Assembly: GCF_003790525.1 (NCBI RefSeq)
Contig: NZ_CP033635.1
From: Escherichia coli
GTDB taxonomy: Bacteria > Pseudomonadota > Gammaproteobacteria > Enterobacterales > Enterobacteriaceae
Length of the DNA stretch: 64,000 bases
Direction: 5' to 3' (one strand)
The notes under the pieces were generated by a model that was not told the DNA's origin, ran no database searches, and worked only from the letters and a program-made list of their open reading frames with translations. Positions 31,386-63,309 of the stretch are shown here, one piece after another; within the stretch, counting starts at the first letter, position 1; each line of letters begins with the position of its first letter. The position numbers and the translations under genes are program-made.

Positions 31386-33053
31386 TTATTGCAAACGTTC
31401 TAATAAACGAGCCAGTTTTTTATTGCCGCCGGCGACTGGCGACCATTGGTAATGCACAACCGGTTTGCTGGCGCTTTGTAGCTCCAGCGCAAAGCTGCGT
31501 AATCCGATGTTAATCACGGCGACGTTTTCCAGTAATGACGGTGTGTGTTGCTGTGTGGCAGGCGAGAGCGGATGAATTAACGCCGCCGCCAGCAAGGTGG
31601 CTTCCGGTAGCGAACTCACTACCGCGATCCCCGCATCTTCCAACGTGGCGATTTGCTGCGCGCGGCATTGCGGGTCACGTTCAGTGCCTGTCACCGTGGC
31701 AATGGCATACAGTGGTTGATTGTCTGAACGCGCGGCACAGGCTTTTTGCCAGGCGCTCACCAGCGAGGCGGCAGGATCGGCGGTCGCACCGAAGCCAATC
31801 ACGACATCAAGCAGCAACACGCGCACTTGCGGTTTAGCGCCGAGATCGGCAATTAACAGGTTGCGTAAGGTCGGGTCGATCATCGGATGGGGACGCCCGA
31901 CGGTGTAAAAATCATCGCCCAGGTCGAGGATCTGATGTCCGTCGGCGTCCAGCATCATGCCATGTTGATGGGTATCGTCGGCTTCCACGCCAAGGTGTCC
32001 GGCAAGTAATCCCGCCGCTTCAGCAGCCAGCGTACCGCCGGTATACAAACCGCAAATAAATCCGCTGCTGACAGGCGCTATCGCGTTACGTCGCGCAGTG
32101 ACGCGTGAAAGCAGACAAGCCAGGCGTGCGGCCTCATCCAGCGAGGAGGCAAACCAGACATTCTCGTCGCGGGCCACCGCCGGGGTATAACCTAAAAACA
32201 ACGCCACCGTCGGTTTGCCAGTTGCTTTCATGGCATTAACAATTTTCAGACGCACAGCTTCGGCAGGTGGTTTTGAAACAAATGCCAGCACTTCGCTTTT
32301 CTCGTCTGCACTAAGCATTTCCAGCGCCGTTAGCGCACTGATGCCGCCCACTTCACGGCTGAGGTCGCGCCCGCCAAGGCCAATCGCATGAGTAATTCCC
32401 TCCCCTGCCAGCGCAATCTGTGAGCACAGCTCCTGAATCCCGGTACCGGAAGCGCCAATGACGCCAATGTTGCCTTCCGGCATCACGTTAGCAAAAGCCA
32501 GCGGCGTGGCGGCAATCATCGACGTACCGCAGTCCGGCCCCATCACCAGCAAGCCTTTTTCCCGCGCGCGGGTTTTAAGTTGGATTTCATCTTCCAGCGT
32601 GACGTTATCGGAGAACATCATCACGTTGAGGTTGCGATCCAGCGCCTGGTTCGCCAGCTCCGCCGCATACTCGCCAGCCACTGAAATCAGCGCCAGACTG
32701 GCATCGGGTAATTTCTGACAGGCACTGTCCCAACGACGCACCTGCGTCAACGCCTGGCTGCTGCCTGAACCCTGCGCCAGTTGTTTTAGCGCCTCTTCAA
32801 GCTGCTGCATAACCGCCTGCGCGATCCCCGCATCTGCCGCTTCGCTACGAATTGCCACGCAAATATCGTTCGGCGTGGCGTGATTAAAATCGTCATGCCA
32901 GAAACCTGTGGTATCTAATAACGCTTTATTGGCGGGCGTACCCATCATTACGGAAACATCATCAACATTTTCTGATTCGCTGAGTTTTCGTGAAATAATC
33001 ATTAAACTGACCGAATCCTGAAAACACCCTTTTTTAATAAAGGCGTGGATCAT
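31386..33053 (-). CDS. fdrA: FdrA, acyl-CoA synthetase (NDP-forming)-like protein
   Basis: 555-aa ORF MIHAFIKKGCFQDSVSLMIISRKL, CoA-binding/succinyl-CoA-synthetase-like layout. Confidence 0.85.
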   Translation of the reverse strand: MIHAFIKKGCFQDSVSLMIISRKLSESENVDDVSVMMGTPANKALLDTTGFWHDDFNHATPNDICVAIRSEAADAGIAQAVMQQLEEALKQLAQGSGSSQALTQVRRWDSACQKLPDASLALISVAGEYAAELANQALDRNLNVMMFSDNVTLEDEIQLKTRAREKGLLVMGPDCGTSMIAATPLAFANVMPEGNIGVIGASGTGIQELCSQIALAGEGITHAIGLGGRDLSREVGGISALTALEMLSADEKSEVLAFVSKPPAEAVRLKIVNAMKATGKPTVALFLGYTPAVARDENVWFASSLDEAARLACLLSRVTARRNAIAPVSSGFICGLYTGGTLAAEAAGLLAGHLGVEADDTHQHGMMLDADGHQILDLGDDFYTVGRPHPMIDPTLRNLLIADLGAKPQVRVLLLDVVIGFGATADPAASLVSAWQKACAARSDNQPLYAIATVTGTERDPQCRAQQIATLEDAGIAVVSSLPEATLLAAALIHPLSPATQQHTPSLLENVAVINIGLRSFALELQSASKPVVHYQWSPVAGGNKKLARLLERLQ

Positions 33054-33369
33054 AACAACTCCTTAAAAATTGCACCCATGGCAATTGCACGAGCAGTGTT
33101 AATGTGGCGATTACGGTATCGATGACAACGAGTAAATAAGGTGATGAATATCACACAGGGATTATTAACAAAAGAATTCAAATAACCGCCGGGCTATTAC
33201 GCGTTATTTTTTAATAAGCGTGATTGTTTTAAAAACCAGGTTAAAAGCGAGCGGATTATCAAATAAATTCTAACTATATTTTTTTGCCTGTCTGGATCAC
33301 ATAATCCAGATATTTTCCCTGTATGTTAATTGCAGTCATGCTTCACATCGTCGTTAAAAAGGAAGACAG

Positions 33370-34419
33370 ATGAAAATCAGTCGGGAAACACTCCACCAGC
33401 TAATTGAGAATAAACTCTGCCAGGCTGGGTTAAAACGTGAGCACGCTGCAACCGTGGCTGAAGTATTGGTTTACGCCGATGCCAGAGGGATCCACTCTCA
33501 TGGCGCGGTGCGCGTGGAATACTACGCCGAACGCATTTCAAAAGGCGGCACCAACCGTGAACCGGAATTTCGTCTTGAAGAAACCGGACCGTGCTCGGCA
33601 ATTTTACATGCCGACAATGCCGCCGGACAGGTCGCGGCGAAAATGGGTATGGAACATGCCATCAAAACCGCCCAGCAAAATGGCGTTGCGGTGGTCGGTA
33701 TCAGCCGGATGGGTCACAGCGGCGCAATCTCTTATTTTGTACAGCAGGCAGCTCGCGCCGGGTTAATTGGCATTTCGATGTGCCAGTCCGATCCAATGGT
33801 GGTGCCGTTTGGCGGCGCGGAAATTTACTACGGTACTAACCCACTGGCCTTTGCCGCGCCGGGAGAAGGCGACGAGATCCTTACCTTTGATATGGCGACT
33901 ACCGTACAGGCATGGGGAAAAGTGCTCGACGCCCGTTCGCGTAATATGTCTATCCCGGATACCTGGGCGGTCGATAAAAACGGTGCACCAACAACCGATC
34001 CGTTCGCGGTACATGCTCTGCTCCCCGCCGCTGGGCCGAAAGGGTATGGCCTGATGATGATGATTGACGTCCTCTCAGGCGTCTTACTCGGCTTACCGTT
34101 TGGGCGACAGGTTAGTTCGATGTATGACGATTTACACGCCGGGCGTAATTTGGGGCAATTACATATCGTTATTAACCCGAACTTTTTCTCCTCCAGCGAA
34201 TTATTCCGTCAACATCTTAGCCAGACCATGCGCGAATTAAATGCCATTACCCCCGCGCCCGGTTTTAATCAGGTTTATTATCCCGGACAGGATCAGGATA
34301 TTAAACAACGCAAAGCCGCCGTCGAAGGCATCGAAATTGTTGATGATATTTACCAGTATTTGATTTCCGACGCGCTTTATAACACGTCATACGAAACGAA
34401 AAATCCCTTTGCGCAATAA
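33370..34419 (+). CDS. allD: AllD, ureidoglycolate dehydrogenase
   Basis: 349-aa ORF MKISRETLHQLIENKLCQAGLKREHA, Ldh_2 family. Confidence 0.9.
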   Translation: MKISRETLHQLIENKLCQAGLKREHAATVAEVLVYADARGIHSHGAVRVEYYAERISKGGTNREPEFRLEETGPCSAILHADNAAGQVAAKMGMEHAIKTAQQNGVAVVGISRMGHSGAISYFVQQAARAGLIGISMCQSDPMVVPFGGAEIYYGTNPLAFAAPGEGDEILTFDMATTVQAWGKVLDARSRNMSIPDTWAVDKNGAPTTDPFAVHALLPAAGPKGYGLMMMIDVLSGVLLGLPFGRQVSSMYDDLHAGRNLGQLHIVINPNFFSSSELFRQHLSQTMRELNAITPAPGFNQVYYPGQDQDIKQRKAAVEGIEIVDDIYQYLISDALYNTSYETKNPFAQ

Positions 34420-37747: not shown

Positions 37748-38019
37748 TATCAATCCTTTTTCAACAAATTATTCGATGCGTTCCCACGGAATAAGATTAT
37801 CCATAAGAACAGCCAGTAAAATTCCGACCAGTAAGCCGTTACTGAGCAGAGGACGAAGCGTTAATGGAAGGTCTTGCAGATACACAGGCGGTAATGCCAT
37901 TAAAAATATGCCGACAAATAACGGCAATGCGAGTCGATAAATATTGCGAGCGGTAAACGTTATTTGCTGGCTAAACACCAGCGCGGAAAAGAGTAAAGGC
38001 AGATGGTAATGACTCCAAC

Positions 38020-38523
38020 TTACTGATAGTGTTTTATGTTCAGATAATGCCCGATGACCTTGTCATGCAGCTCCACCGATTTTGAGAACGACAGTGACTT
38101 CCGTCCCAGCCTTGCCAGATGTTGTCTCAGATTCAGGTTATGCCGCTCAATTCGCTGAGTGTAACGCTTGCTGATTACGTGCAGCTTTCCCTTCAGGCGG
38201 GATTCATACAGCGGCCAGCCATCCGTCATCCATACCACGACCTCAAAGGCCGACAGCAGGCTTAGAAGACGCTCCAGTGTGGCCAGAGTGCGTTCACCGA
38301 ATACGTGCGCAACAACCGTCTTCCGGAGCCTGTCATACGCGTAAAACAGCCAGCGCTGGCGCGATTTAGCCCCGACGTATCCCCACTGTTCGTCCATTTC
38401 CGCGCAGACGATGACGTCACTGCCCGGCTGTATGCGCGAGGTTACCGACTGCGGCCTGAGTTTTTTAAATGGCGGAAAATCGTGTTGAGGCCAACGCCCA
38501 TAATGCGGGCGGTTGCCCGGCAT
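38020..38523 (-). CDS. insB: InsB, IS1 transposase catalytic ORF (expressed by -1 frameshift as InsAB')
   Basis: 167-aa [54 protein letters not shown]. Confidence 0.95.
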
Positions 38524-38717
38524 CCAACGCCATTCATGGCCATATCAATGATTTTCTGGTGCGTACCGGGTTGAGAAGCGGTGTAAGTGAACTGCAGTTG
38601 CCATGTTTTACGGCAGTGAGAGCAGAGATAGCGCTGATGTCCGGCGGTGCTTTTGCCGTTACGCACCACCCCGTCAGTAGCTGAACAGGAGGGACAGCTG
38701 ATAGAAACAGAAGCCAC
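38442..38717 (-). CDS. insA: InsA, IS1 repressor/transposase N-terminal protein
   Basis: 91-aa [43 protein letters not shown] (zinc-finger plus HTH). Confidence 0.95.
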
Positions 38718-39902
38718 TGGAGCACCTCAAAAACACCATCATACACTAAATCAGTAAGTTGGCAGCATCACCAAGGCAGATAAGAAACCAACATGACCGC
38801 GCTACTCACCGGTAAAGGGATACTGCAAAACAGTCGTGTGAGTGCCGGAACCAGTGCCACCAGCAGGCAAATAACGCTGCCATAAATAAACGATCGTCGC
38901 GTGTAATCGCCAGTCTGGGTTAATAAACCAATGGATGAAACAAACGGTGAAAATGGAATTACCGCCAGCGGCACGGTTATCAGCGTCATAAATCCGGTCG
39001 CCACAAAGCTGCGACGATAACGCGTATTCCCCGCGCCCTGTTGCGGATAAAAAACATCCGTGCCACGAATCGCACCGTAGGTATTGCTGATATTTACCAG
39101 ACCTGTAATCACCGCCGTCAGAATAATCCCCGGCGACAAAGCACCGCCACTGCCGAGCGGGAACCACTGCCAGTGCAACTCACCGGAGAGCGAATGCGAA
39201 GAAGGAAAGCAAAAGTACCACAACAACCAGCCGGTTATCGTACCGACCAGCAGGCCATAACGGGCAAAACGTTGCGGCAGGAAGATAATCATCGCCAGTA
39301 CCAGGCACATCACCGCCACCGAGAGCGCGAACGGCGGTAACTGAATTTTAAAATTCGGGTCGGCTATGCCAAACGGCAGCCCGAGCATACCTTTGAAAAA
39401 GATAGTGGTCAGCTGCGCGCCCAGCATCAACATAAACAAGACCATCACCGACGGCGTAAATAACCGCGCCAGACGATGACCTAATCCGCTAAAACCAATC
39501 AACATCGTCAGCACGCCAGAGAGCGCAATTCCCACCGCCAGGCTGGTAGCGATATCGTTGATCGGTGTCCCGCGCGATGCTTCGCCAAGGGTGATAGTCA
39601 GGATGGTTCCCCACCACAGGCCACCCGGCCCTTCCATAATAGCGCGACGATGACCGCAGAACGCCTGAGCGAAGCAGGCCAGTGCGGTAGCAAGAAAAGC
39701 ATATTGCGTGAGCGTAAGCAGGCTACTTTGCGGCAACTGAAAAGCAGAAAGTAGCGTAGGAGGAACCACAACCGTGTTGCAAAAAATAAAGAAAAACCAC
39801 TGAAATCCTGATAACAGGCTTTCGCGGCCCACTGCAAAATTGAACATAAACACACCTTAACCGGAGAATGCCCGCCACAAGGACGGGCATTGCAGGGCCA
39901 GA

Positions 39903-46517: not shown

Positions 46518-46534
46518 TTGGAAAAATTTTCCAA
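46518..46534. promoter_or_regulatory. AllR operator at the gcl promoter
   Basis: Perfect palindrome TTGGAAAAATTTTCCAA immediately upstream of gcl. Confidence 0.8.
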
Positions 46535-48067: not shown

Positions 48068-48084
48068 TTGGAATATTTTTCCAA
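48068..48084. promoter_or_regulatory. AllR operator in the allA / allS divergent promoter region
   Basis: Palindrome TTGGAATATTTTTCCAA, same half-sites as the gcl site. Confidence 0.75.
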
Positions 48085-62016: not shown

Positions 62017-63309
62017 TTATACGGTTTTATTGCGCTTCATGACCATTGCCACAATAAGGCTGAGTAAGATTGCGCCAATAATCCATATCAACGCACGGCT
62101 GCCCTGGGACCACAGGCTGTAGATAAAGCCAACGATCACCAACAACATCACCGACGTACCAACGATAAGAATCGGCAACGAGGCGTGAATATCATGACGC
62201 AGGCGGATCGCCACCACAAACACCGCCAGATAGCAGATCAAAAAGGTGGCGCTGGCAACGCTGGCGAGTGAGCCTAAATTCAGCGCCGCCGTCATCAGCA
62301 TAATCAGCACCACGACAATGATGTTGCCCCAGGTACTCTGCCGCCACAGGGATTTATTCATTAGCTTCGGCAGTTCGCGTTCGCTGCCCATGTTGTCCAT
62401 GATGTTAAACACGGCGAACAGGTTCGCGTTGATGGCTGAAGCCGTCGCCAGTAAAGCGCCGATGACGACGATCACATAACCCACATGCCCGAGCAGCGGA
62501 GAAGCAGCCTGCGCTACGGCGGTATCGGCATATTTTTCTAACTCTAATGCCGATACATCGCTAAGCAAAACCAGCGCCAGCGAGATATAAAGCAACGTGG
62601 TAACGCCAATCGCCACCAGAAACGCCCGTGGCATAATGATCTGCGGATCTTTCACTTTATCCGCCGCGTTCGCCATCATGCCAAAGCCCGCATAGGCAAG
62701 GAAGGTTATCCCAATACAGGAGAAGAACGCACCGGAGCTGGGGGGCGCAGAGACGGAAATATGTGCCGGTTGCAGCGACCAGACACCTGCAATGATCAGC
62801 AATAACAGGATCATCATTTTAATGCCGACGAGGATCACTTCCAGCCGCCCTACCGCATGGTTGCTTAAGGAGTTGAAAAGCGTCATCACCGCAATGATCC
62901 CCAACGCGTAGAGCAATATAAGGTGCTCCTCCTGACTGCCTTCATGCAAAAACTGCACGGCATAAGCGCCAAAAGCACGGGCGACCATGGCGATGCTCAC
63001 CGCCAGCGTCAACAGGTACAATAACGAGAGTGCCAGCGAAAAGACGCCGTTGCCTAATCCGCGACGAAAGAAGTCGATAATACCGCCATTGCTGGGATAG
63101 CTCGCCCCCAGGCGCGCATAGGCATAACCGGAAAACATCGCCACAATACCGCCAAAAGCAAAGGCGACCCAGGTCGAGGCTTCCATTAGCAACGCAGCCT
63201 GCCCCAGCAGCGCGAAGATCCCCGCCCCCACCATTGCCCCAATGCCGATGGAAACGACGTTCCATAGACCGAGGGGTTTGTTACCGTTATTACCTTCCGT
63301 GTTCATCAT
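62017..63309 (-). CDS. ybaT: YbaT, APC-family amino acid transporter
   Basis: 430-aa polytopic ORF MMNTEGNNGNKPLGLWNVVSIGIGAMVGAGIFALLG. Confidence 0.88.
   Translation of the reverse strand: MMNTEGNNGNKPLGLWNVVSIGIGAMVGAGIFALLGQAALLMEASTWVAFAFGGIVAMFSGYAYARLGASYPSNGGIIDFFRRGLGNGVFSLALSLLYLLTLAVSIAMVARAFGAYAVQFLHEGSQEEHLILLYALGIIAVMTLFNSLSNHAVGRLEVILVGIKMMILLLLIIAGVWSLQPAHISVSAPPSSGAFFSCIGITFLAYAGFGMMANAADKVKDPQIIMPRAFLVAIGVTTLLYISLALVLLSDVSALELEKYADTAVAQAASPLLGHVGYVIVVIGALLATASAINANLFAVFNIMDNMGSERELPKLMNKSLWRQSTWGNIIVVVLIMLMTAALNLGSLASVASATFLICYLAVFVVAIRLRHDIHASLPILIVGTSVMLLVIVGFIYSLWSQGSRALIWIIGAILLSLIVAMVMKRNKTV

Follow-up and report, generated by a model that had tools for sequence, protein, structure and literature searches.

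The window, a 64-kb stretch of DNA from E. coli SMS-3-5, contained the divergently oriented genes fdrA (allF) and allD, whose identities, as proposed in an earlier sequence-only reading, were borne out by the RefSeq annotation. The AT-rich region that had been described between them was of the size given, 316 bp, with a G+C content of 36%. The use of allantoin by E. coli is restricted to anaerobic, nitrogen-poor conditions. The divergent control region between fdrA and allD is real, and both of the palindromes noted in it (palindrome 1 on the allD side, palindrome 2 on the fdrA side) touch constrained sequence. Conservation was tested on the fdrA–allD gaps of 35 Enterobacterales species, with column statistics over 17 Enterobacteriaceae. 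All promoter-relative positions for allD and allF rest on start sites inferred from conserved -10-like hexamers; no experimental start site for either gene was found in the literature searched. The positions of the published AllS and ArcA fragments were converted from allF numbering (window = 33053 + n). The features are listed in Table 1.

Table 1. Features of the fdrA–allD control region, in window coordinates; promoter-relative positions refer to inferred start sites unless given in published allF numbering.
Feature	Position	Strand	Sequence	Remarks
fdrA (= allF)	31386..33053	-		First gene of the allFGHK operon; ORF list and RefSeq annotation; gene naming from PMC11326118
Palindrome 2	33068..33086		AATTGC-ACCCATG-GCAATT	15 bp from the fdrA ATG (33053, minus strand); ~+21 to +39 of inferred allF leader; K-12 546647-546665
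Inferred allF (fdrA) -10 hexamer	33113..33118	-	TACCGT	Implies a start near 33105-33106 (K-12 546627-546628) and a leader of ~53 nt
ArcA-P gel-shift fragment	33136..33195			allF -142 to -83 (PMC12535856); predicted ArcA sites at -117 and -134; holds the whole CRP site
CRP site	33140..33155		TGTGATATTCATCACC (allF-sense strand)	Centre 33147.5, -41.5 of inferred allF promoter (class II position)
AllS gel-shift fragment	33197..33256			allF -203 to -144 (PMC12535856); contains the PRODORIC AllS site (centre -181, ~33234) and the dyad at 33227-33246
Conserved 24-bp block	33254..33277		GATTATCAAATAAATTCTAACTAT	-81 to -58 of inferred allD promoter
T-N11-A box	33263-33277		ATA-N9-TAT	Centre 33270, ~-64 of inferred allD promoter; LysR-regulator type; inside the 24-bp block
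Palindrome 1	33291..33310		TCTGGAT-CACATA-ATCCAGA	7-bp arms, 6-bp spacer; ends 60 bp before the allD ATG (33370); K-12 546423-546442
GATCACA heptamer	33295..33301	+	GATCACA	-39 to -33 of inferred allD promoter; left part of palindrome 1
Right arm of palindrome 1	33304..33310		ATCCAGA	In the -35/-10 spacer of inferred allD promoter
Inferred allD -10 hexamer	33322..33327	+	TATGTT	Implies a start near 33334 (K-12 ~546399) and a leader of ~36 nt
allD ribosome-binding region	33357-33372		AAAAGGAAGACAGATG	Nearly invariant
allD	33370..34419	+		Ureidoglycolate dehydrogenase; first gene of allDCE

The gap would comprise two back-to-back sigma-70 promoters, each dependent on an activator. On the allF side, the pattern nGTGA-N6-TCACA was present in all 35 species and had no other match in the 64-kb window. 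A TAnnnT hexamer was located exactly 21 nt beyond this CRP-type 16-mer in 31 of the 35 species and was shifted by 1 nt in the other four; its inner bases vary, and its T, A, and T are fixed. In class II CRP-dependent promoters, the CRP site is centered at -41.5. The allF promoter resembles this class in that the center of its TGTGA-N6-TCACC lies 29.5 bp from the first base of TAnnnT (31/35 species) and in that CRP binds in vitro at ~10 nM. The site, at K-12 position 546586 and assigned to the allD/fdrA pair, was reported as a novel in vitro site with a Kd of ~9.8 nM (PMC12871828, Table 1), and the inferred allF start now places it at the class II position. On the other hand, it coincides with neither palindrome, and a role for CRP at allF is a candidate one based on site position and in vitro binding. 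CRP was not considered in the 2025 study of allF, which named AllS and ArcA as regulators using 60-bp fragments and crude lysates (PMC12535856). The ArcA-P fragment of that study includes a conserved stretch at 33160-33186 (conservation of 0.74, seven invariant columns).

Both palindromes were recovered exactly on re-reading of the sequence: palindrome 1 with 7-bp arms about 60 bp from allD, and palindrome 2 with the sequence, position, and closeness to the fdrA start that had been described. However, neither is unusual on composition alone. When the 316 bp were shuffled 2000 times with dinucleotide composition preserved, 24-32% of the shuffled sequences contained one or more perfect inverted repeats with 7-bp arms, and 64-74% contained one or more with 6-bp arms. 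The gap itself contained a third dyad with 6-bp arms, TTTTAA-N8-TTAAAA at 33227-33246, which was absent from the earlier list. Because shuffling often gives such dyads, their significance must rest on conservation. We give roughly even odds to the view that the two palindromes differ in nature.

Palindrome 2 was found exact and at the same offset in 14 of the 35 species, which represent five to six genera (Escherichia, Citrobacter werkmanii and Citrobacter FP75, UBA3516, Raoultella, Klebsiella, bin60, and Superficieibacter), and the predicted conservation in orthologous gaps therefore holds within one clade. Most genera carry the form AATTGCA-CCCAT-TGCAATT, with 7-bp arms and a 5-bp spacer. 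Invariant columns made up 17 of 19 in the palindrome versus 13 of 34 in the flanks (Fisher p = 2.7e-4), and a 60-mer of the allF leader was identical in 5058 of 5338 E. coli genomes. The palindrome was missing from Buttiauxella, Atlantibacter, RIT691, and Citrobacter sp. 18056 within Enterobacteriaceae, and from the Serratia, Pantoea, and Providencia clade, all of which keep the same promoters. Palindrome 2 most likely belongs to the transcribed leader downstream of the allF promoter, a location unsuited to activators such as AllS or ArcA.

Palindrome 2 has the two-fold symmetry expected of a site for a dimeric protein, both of its arms are conserved, and it stands out from its flanks. These features suggest that it is most likely a candidate operator. 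This constrained 19-bp dyad of the transcribed allF leader, with a putative class II CRP-dependent promoter on one side and the allF ribosome-binding site a short distance downstream, could bind a dimeric DNA-binding protein that functions as a repressor or roadblock after the activation step by AllS, ArcA, or CRP. Repressor operators can also be placed past the transcription start, as are dyads of the lac O1 type in the initially transcribed region. Palindrome 2 is similar to these in its symmetry, its length of 19 bp, its location between start site and ribosome-binding site, and the conservation of both arms, but differs from them in having no known cognate protein and no auxiliary operators in the window, in its confinement to a single clade, and in that a short leader ORF begins with the ATG at its center. 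It was matched by none of the consensus scans for AllR, RutR, NarL 7-2-7, NtrC, PurR, PdhR/LldR-like, FNR, and CRP sites, and no second copy with at most one mismatch was found in the 64-kb window, where the remainder of the allantoin regulon is also located. When the literature was searched for AATTGCA/TGCAATT as an already described binding motif, only unrelated mentions of primers or sequences came up, and the literature searched yielded no usable ChIP or SELEX data on fdrA.

Some of the conservation of palindrome 2 might instead be explained by the leader ORF. It reads ATG GGT GCA ATT TTT AAG GAG TTG TTA TGA (MGAIFKELL*, nine codons), and its TGA overlaps the allF ATG. We consider it unlikely that palindrome 2 acts in the mRNA, whether as the start of this ORF in translational coupling to allF or as a small hairpin that displays the AUG in its loop or modulates ribosome access. 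The ATG at the center of the dyad (allF-sense strand) is invariant, and 13 of the 14 species with palindrome 2 share the upstream ATG, the identical open frame, and the ATGA overlap. Short ORFs that end on the allF start also occur in leaders lacking the palindrome (MHDVIIGEWL*, with an in-frame 3-nt length difference, MRNYQ*, and MLMRNR*), and a hairpin of the form AAUUGC(A)-loop-(U)GCAAUU can form. However, the upstream ATG is preceded by neither a Shine-Dalgarno sequence nor a purine-rich stretch, and E. whittamii has lost the overlapping stop and is otherwise unchanged. Codons 5-8 vary non-synonymously, whereas the third positions of codons 2-4 never change, which indicates constraint on the nucleotides and not on the peptide. 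Folding energies were no better than those of shuffles (z = -0.78 for the leader and +0.31 for the hairpin), and the arms never vary and so offer no covariation. The only Rfam match in 32900-33500 was SCARNA7, a spurious hit at 19.2 bits against a threshold of 65. An RNA hairpin or attenuator was accordingly rejected, as the sequence folds like its shuffles and matches no Rfam family. An intrinsic terminator flagged here by a consensus scan was also rejected: its stem is AU-rich and weak, and its U-run is specific to E. coli, with AUUAUUGGGG elsewhere.

Palindrome 1, in contrast to what had been expected of it, is not conserved as a palindrome: across the 35 Enterobacterales, the dyad is intact only in Escherichia, and only the half containing GATCACA is kept. 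In Escherichia (E. coli and E. whittamii), the arms were complementary at 7, 7, and 6 of 7 positions; in the 32 species outside the genus, they were so at 1-4 of 7, with a mean of ~2.4. The palindrome is identical in K-12 and SMS-3-5, and the 60-mer around it in 5017 of 5318 E. coli genomes. Among the 17 Enterobacteriaceae, the right arm had a mean identity of 0.33 to the E. coli base and no invariant column out of seven, and other genera read AATTTAAGT or TTATTCCCC at its position. GATCACA, on the other hand, was found in the gaps of all 35 species, with all seven columns invariant in alignment A1 and a wider consensus of aTCTGGATCACAtta. It was followed 20 nt downstream by TAnnnT in 33 of the 35 species, with the variants TATGTT, TATTTT, or TACATT at this fixed offset; G271, T272, A273, T274, and T277 of the allD -10 region were invariant in alignment A1. 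The left part of palindrome 1 would thus belong to a deeply conserved element that spans roughly -43 to -33 of the allD promoter and reads (a)TCTGGATCACA(tta), and the right arm would fall in a freely evolving -35/-10 spacer, where it may have become complementary by chance in Escherichia only. We put at about even the odds that palindrome 1 is no symmetric operator but a fortuitous symmetry on top of this promoter element. GATCACA itself is probably a promoter-proximal contact for an activator, judging from its conservation and position. A consensus scan also flagged an intrinsic terminator at palindrome 1, which was dismissed since the hairpin is unconserved and no plus-strand transcript runs into it. 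No further copies of palindrome 1 were found in the 64-kb window, including the allS-allA and gcl promoters.

The likeliest occupant of the GATCACA element would be the activation-site half of a complex of AllS, a LysR-type regulator, anchored on the T-N11-A box 30 bp upstream; a CRP half-site is the alternative. In classical LysR-type promoters, the regulator recognizes a T-N11-A site near -65 and has its activation site near -35. At allD, the T-N11-A box at ~-64 is kept in 17 of 19 Enterobacteriaceae and lies inside the best-conserved block (24 bp; mean column identity of 0.91, 12 of 24 columns invariant in the 17 Enterobacteriaceae). GATCACA and palindrome 1 are placed about 30 bp downstream over -35, the center of palindrome 1 (33300.5, or ~-33.5 from the inferred start) being 30.5 bp below that of the box. 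The allD promoter also lacks a recognizable -35 hexamer and requires AllS, as LysR-type promoters do their regulators; PMC12535856 cites Rintoul et al. (2002) for AllS being essential to allD expression. The 24-bp block reads gaTTATCAAATAAATTc, which by eye, against the consensus and with no matrix score, agrees at 13 of 14 positions with the ttwTCAAwAwwwTT part of the motif TsttwTCAAwAwwwTTGaaGGCA of AdnB (YdhB), a paralogue of AllS (bioRxiv 10.1101/2020.05.03.074617). However, the right half of that motif, TTGaaGGCA, is unmatched, and the matching block (33254-33277) lies outside both palindromes. The block at -81 to -58 of allD and the class II CRP site of allF are the strongest elements of the gap, and neither was flagged in the sequence-only reading.

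Several observations set allD apart from typical LysR-type promoters. LysR-type activation sites are usually poorly conserved and degenerate. GATCACA, unlike these, is invariant and the best-conserved element here, which counts against its reading as an AllS contact, and the dyad around it is confined to Escherichia among the orthologous promoters. Moreover, the available evidence for AllS binding, reported to be effector-independent (PMC12535856), maps upstream of both the T-N11-A box and the GATCACA element: the published site and fragment lie ~45-95 bp upstream of palindrome 1, with GATCACA and the 24-bp block outside the fragment. Within the gap, conservation is lowest in this fragment (identity of 0.49 to E. 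coli over 33227-33246), which is also the most polymorphic part within E. coli.

If GATCACA were a CRP half-site, CRP would be positioned at ~-41 of the allD and allF promoters alike. It would occupy a full site at allF and, stabilized by RNA polymerase or AllS, a half-site at allD, and the whole oxamate branch would then be under catabolite control. This arrangement is improbable, although several points agree with it. GATCACA corresponds to a consensus half-site plus two inner flanking bases (aGATCACAttt), continued by ATT or TTA in many species. TCAC is found at -37 to -34 of allD and at -38 to -35 of allF, an equal geometry, and a bona fide CRP site is located 146 bp away in the gap. Weak CRP sites rely mainly on one half-site according to Footprint-seq (PMC12871828). 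However, allD has only the promoter-proximal half of a class II site. Compared with the full site TGTGA-N6-TCACA, palindrome 1 offers TCACA and a distal half of GCCTG (0/5), and no TGTGA-like conservation was seen at the distal half in the 35 species (0-1/5 in E. coli, low-information columns). A scan of the gap for CRP sites with at most three mismatches returned 33140-33155 and a weak match at 33219-33234, neither on a palindrome, and a published CRP footprint at K-12 546432-546438 was not found in the accessible literature. Furthermore, the spacer GA is invariant at allD and varies freely in the true CRP site of allF, which points to a different or additional reader of GATCACA.

It is similarly doubtful that both palindromes are functionless by-products, that is, short dyads expected in AT-rich DNA, with the conservation of palindrome 2 due to recent common ancestry or to a generic constraint of translation initiation. 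The frequency of such dyads in shuffles is in line with this, as are the lineage-specific dyad of palindrome 1, the absence of palindrome 2 from 21 of 35 species that keep both promoters, and the failure to find a partner site or a known regulator consensus. Palindrome 2, however, forms a sharp island of conservation relative to both flanks among genera whose FdrA N-termini are only ~79-86% identical, and its arms are longer in most genera (7 bp) than in E. coli.

The scans for known regulators provided no support for either palindrome as an operator of those tested. ArcA boxes are 15-mers, GTTAATTAAATGTTA, with direct TGTTA repeats 11 bp apart. Matches at 10 or more of the 15 positions of this consensus were found at 33172-86, 33205-19, and 33258-72, none on a palindrome; the three observed compare with 2.1 in shuffles, and the scan is therefore not discriminating. 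No FNR site (TTGAT-N4-ATCAA, at most three mismatches) fell on either palindrome; the best FNR-like match, with two mismatches, was the CRP site (33141-33154), and palindrome 2 contains TTG-N9-CAA, one base too long for FNR. The scans for AllR, RutR, FNR, CRP, NarL 7-2-7, NtrC, PurR, sigma-54, and PdhR/LldR-like sites gave nothing on either palindrome. The AllR operator pattern KTTGGAAWAWTWTTCCAAC was taken from PMC8222616 (Table 1). The AllR box TTGGAAWAWTWTTCCAA was identified in the window at 46518 (upstream of gcl) and 48068 (allS-allA gap), with a weak match at 62525 at up to three mismatches; none at this threshold lay in 33054-33369, in agreement with the earlier statement that neither palindrome matches the box.

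The least probable explanation is the one first offered, namely that palindrome 1 is a symmetric operator for an AllS dimer or an anaerobic regulator that activates allD and that palindrome 2 is an operator for a regulator of the same class at fdrA. One part of it stands, as palindrome 1 does occupy an AllS-type activator position with classical LysR-type spacing from the T-N11-A box, in a gap controlled by both AllS and ArcA, and the two palindromes do not differ between SMS-3-5 and K-12 and hardly vary among ~5300 E. coli genomes. The remainder does not: the dyad of palindrome 1 is lost outside Escherichia, neither palindrome lies inside the AllS or ArcA-P gel-shift fragment or carries an ArcA-like (at least 10/15) or FNR-like match, the inferred allF promoter is upstream of palindrome 2, and the invariance within E. 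coli extends through both flanks in full rather than singling out the dyads.

Both palindromes are ordinary promoter-region features, and the cis-elements are partly new. The footprint provides a base-resolution map of constraint in the shared control region and concrete targets for mutagenesis, in which the eye-catching allD palindrome would be a red herring save for its GATCACA half. We only tentatively entertain the combination of palindrome 2 as the operator of an unrecognised regulator, or as the start of a coupled leader ORF, with GATCACA as a second CRP contact. If true, a third, post-activation layer of control would act on allFGHK (the oxamate branch) in the Escherichia-Citrobacter-Klebsiella lineage, both divergent promoters would be of the CRP class II type, and catabolite control would extend to the strictly anaerobic allantoin pathway. 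The result refines the wiring of one operon and changes no concept. Direct repeats specific to E. coli, AATTGCAnnCATG at 33068 and 33328, were set aside, since other genera do not conserve the 33328 copy. The allantoin cluster is a marker of hypervirulent Klebsiella, and the leader dyad was common to the sampled Klebsiella and Raoultella species.

The two palindromes that a sequence-only reading had proposed as candidate operators for AllS or an anaerobic regulator in the divergent fdrA-allD gap mark the two outer edges of a proposed regulatory architecture, the strongest elements of which had been missed. fdrA, now named allF, heads allFGHK, the operon for oxamic transcarbamylase and carbamate kinase (PMC11326118, PMC12535856). 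The gap (33054-33369) comprises 316 bp with 36% G+C, and the surrounding region (32700-33700) was a 100% match to E. coli SMS-3-5 (NC_010498.1). The K-12 gap is equally long; of the 10 positions at which it differs, nine lie within 33160-33248 and none in either palindrome (K-12 coordinate = 579733 - window coordinate). Palindrome 1, near allD, and palindrome 2, near the allF start, were located exactly where they had been placed, and neither resembled the AllR box, as had been stated; the AllR motif (PMC8222616) was present only at 46518, upstream of gcl, and at 48068, in the allS-allA gap. Dinucleotide-preserving shuffles of the 316 bp contained at least one perfect inverted repeat with 7-bp arms in 24-32% of cases and at least one with 6-bp arms in 64-74%; the two palindromes are thus not improbable by composition. 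Elsewhere in the SMS-3-5 allantoin cluster, ybbY, a uracil/xanthine transporter gene, is interrupted by an IS1 element (window ~37769-39847; 17070-19148 in L001, the corresponding locus of the AllD scan), and both halves are annotated as pseudogene fragments.

The AllD scan, which used one genome per species, returned 80 loci, and the divergent fdrA-allD order was retained in 34 Enterobacterales loci. Seventeen Enterobacteriaceae gaps were aligned, and all 35 gaps, including that of the window, were then compared by anchoring on invariant motifs; these species are related, so that species counts do not represent independent events. Constraint within the gap was sharply uneven (Table).

Table. 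Features of the fdrA-allD gap and its flanks, with their conservation across the compared species.
Feature	Window position	Strand	Remarks
fdrA (= allF)	31386-33053	minus	ORF
Leader ORF MGAIFKELL (stop)	33054-33080	minus	UGA overlaps allF AUG (ATGA)
Palindrome 2, AATTGCACCCATGGCAATT	33068-33086		
Putative allF -10 hexamer	33118 to 33113	minus	
CRP site (nGTGA-N6-TCACA), TGTGATATTCATCACC on the allF-sense strand	33140-33155 (K-12 546578-546593)		in 35/35 Enterobacterales species
Published AllS-site region	33227-33246		identity to E. coli only 0.49
24-bp block, GATTATCAAATAAATTCTAACTAT	33254-33277		mean identity 0.91
Palindrome 1, TCTGGATCACATAATCCAGA	33291-33310		
GATCACA	33295-33301		7/7 columns invariant; in 35/35 species
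TATGTT	33322-33327		mean identity 0.94
allD ribosome-binding region	33354-33369		mean identity 0.92
allD	33370-34419	plus	ORF; followed by allC and allE

Expression of allF'-'lacZ requires anaerobiosis and allantoin as well as both AllS and ArcA (Kim and Kim 2025, PMC12535856). In that study, where position n relative to allF corresponds to window 33053 + n, AllS-containing lysate shifted a 60-bp fragment from -203 to -144 (33197-33256) and ArcA-P-containing lysate shifted one from -142 to -83 (33136-33195); a PRODORIC AllS site was centered at -181 according to the figure legend (near 33234), and ArcA sites were predicted at -117, -134, and -163. Neither fragment contains palindrome 1 or palindrome 2. 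A third dyad that the sequence-only reading did not list, TTTTAA-N8-TTAAAA (33227-33246), coincides with the published AllS site. At 33187-33250, the AllS-binding fragment with the PRODORIC site was less conserved among genera than any other part of the gap and held most of the differences between K-12 and SMS-3-5. The AllS-site region is also polymorphic within E. coli: megablast retrieved its 60-mer in only 263 genomes, and it was identical in only 23 of about 5300, compared with 5058/5338 and 5017/5318 for the two flanking 60-mers.

On the allF side, a TAnnnT hexamer was located exactly 21 nt past the CRP-type 16-mer (allF-sense strand) in 31 of the 35 species and was shifted by one base in the other four. 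This hexamer is TACCGT in E. coli and TAGCCT, TAGCTT, TAGTTT, or TACTGT elsewhere; its fixed T, A, and T and varying inner bases are the signature of a -10 element. Transcription of allF would accordingly start near 33105-33106 with a leader of 53 nt, and the CRP site would be centered at -41.5, which is a class II arrangement. Among the novel CRP sites of a 2026 Footprint-seq preprint (PMC12871828) is tgTGTGAtattcaTCACCtta, which is assigned to the allD/fdrA gene pair at K-12 546586 and has an inferred Kd of 9.8 nM; this sequence maps to the same 16 positions. The site has been published only as an in vitro one, and we infer its class II placement and order-wide conservation as new features. 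It also lies inside the 60-bp fragment behind the crude-lysate binding of ArcA-P (PMC12535856), a study in which promoter marks are computational predictions and CRP was neither mentioned nor considered. The literature search found no experimental mapping of the start sites of allF or allD. In Klebsiella spallanzanii, the gap is 440 bp instead of the usual ~315 bp, with ~125 bp inserted between the CRP site and GATCACA and both promoter-proximal parts unaltered.

On the allD side, a TAnnnT hexamer (TATGTT, TATTTT, or TACATT) followed GATCACA by 20 nt in 33 of the 35 species, which would place the allD start near 33334 and GATCACA at -39 to -33. The putative promoter has no usable -35 hexamer, as expected of an activator-dependent promoter. 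The phylogenetic footprint did not bear out palindrome 1 as a conserved dyad: with GATCACA as the anchor, its arms were complementary at 7, 7, and 6 of 7 positions in SMS-3-5, E. coli E69, and E. whittamii, respectively, and at 1-4 of 7 (about 2.4 on average) in the other 32 species. Conservation of the left arm and spacer is due to (a)TCTGGATCACA(tta), which they include, whereas the right arm, ATCCAGA, which would occupy the promoter spacer at about -30 to -24, agreed with E. coli in only 33% of cells. An unconserved right arm and pairing restricted to Escherichia indicate that the dyad is a lineage-specific coincidence over a real element.

AllS is a candidate reader of GATCACA. The 24-bp block, which is better conserved than any other block of the gap, is similar to the motif bound by AdnB, a paralogue of AllS, and holds ATA-N9-TAT (33263-33277), a T-N11-A box of the LysR/Nac type that would be centered near -64 and was retained by 17 of 19 Enterobacteriaceae. 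The center of palindrome 1 lies 30.5 bp downstream of this box, and LysR-type activators usually have such a spacing between recognition and activation sites. The block is outside both published gel-shift fragments, and AllS or ArcA are only candidate binders. CRP is the other candidate, since GATCACA is a perfect CRP half-site that shares the register of TCAC in the allF CRP site, but no species had the distal half-site. The block also includes TTCTAAC, the reverse complement of GTTAGAA, which resembles an ArcA TGTTA element or a DeoR half-operator. In the Serratia clade (L021-L025, L034, and L081), ATTGTTAGAA adjoins the CRP site and an inverted copy, TTCTAACAAT, is located at about -97 of allD, so that the two form an inverted pair at long range. 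In the E. coli clade, the TTCTAAC element lies 33 bp nearer allD instead.

Conservation of palindrome 2 was partial. An exact copy with unchanged spacing to the allF ATG was present in 14 of the 35 species (Escherichia, two Citrobacter, UBA3516, Raoultella, four Klebsiella, bin60, and two Superficieibacter), most of which have a longer form than E. coli (AATTGCA-CCCAT-TGCAATT). It was missing from Buttiauxella (deleted), Atlantibacter, RIT691, Citrobacter sp. 18056, and the Serratia/Pantoea/Providencia clade, all of which keep both promoters. Within the carrier clade, 17/19 of its columns were invariant vs. 7/20 in the next 20 nt and 6/14 toward the ribosome-binding site (Fisher p = 2.7e-4). 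Palindrome 2 would lie at about +21 to +39 of the allF leader, a position that suits a repressor or roadblock operator and not an activator site. It matched no consensus tested, with strings for ArcA, NarL, NtrC, PurR, and sigma-54 among those used, had no second copy within the 64-kb window and no match in Rfam, and its RNA hairpin was weak and no better than those of shuffles.

Alternatively, the center of palindrome 2 may be conserved as the invariant AUG of a 9-codon leader ORF. The same arrangement was found in 13 of the 14 species with palindrome 2, and four leaders of other Enterobacteriaceae that lack it have comparable short ORFs terminating at the allF start. Against a coding role, this ORF has no Shine-Dalgarno sequence, and its codons 5-8 show non-synonymous variation whereas codons 2-4 are invariant at their third positions. 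In the Serratia clade, a conserved ATG-CTG-TYT-TAA stands just 5' of the ribosome-binding site. Other dyads occupy the place of palindrome 2, ~20 nt upstream of the fdrA ATG, in some lineages: RIT691 has TATTTAC-N7-GTAAATA, and Pantoea and Erwinia have TTGTGA-ACA-TCACAA. A dyad may thus recur in this leader, with a sequence that depends on the lineage.

From allF to allD, the proposed order would be the allF leader with palindrome 2, the allF -10 hexamer, the CRP site at -41.5, a conserved stretch (33160-33186) within the ArcA gel-shift fragment, a variable, AT-rich center with the published AllS site, the 24-bp block, in which the T-N11-A box is at about -64 of allD, and GATCACA at -39 to -33 followed by the allD -10 hexamer. 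All of these are of familiar classes: CRP promoters of class II, activator promoters of the LysR type, and, possibly, a downstream operator or a leader ORF. The accessible literature, which does not include the key 2002 paper, contained no description of palindrome 1, palindrome 2, GATCACA, or the 24-bp block.

Two loci of the AllD scan, labeled 'Chryseobacterium sp. 18061' (CACSKA010000001.1) and 'MAG: Sporobacter termitidis' (JAJUHI010000052.1), are of the Enterobacteriaceae type (their AllD identity is 83%, and the gap can be aligned in full) and are probably mislabeled or contaminated assemblies. Many Bacillales (L045 and L050-L079, including Paenibacillus, Bacillus, and Sporosarcina) encode an AllD that is 65-69% identical to the E. 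coli protein, which is unusually high across phyla for the allD-fdrA pair; in these loci, fdrA is not divergent and is located on the same strand, ~1.1 kb downstream of allD.
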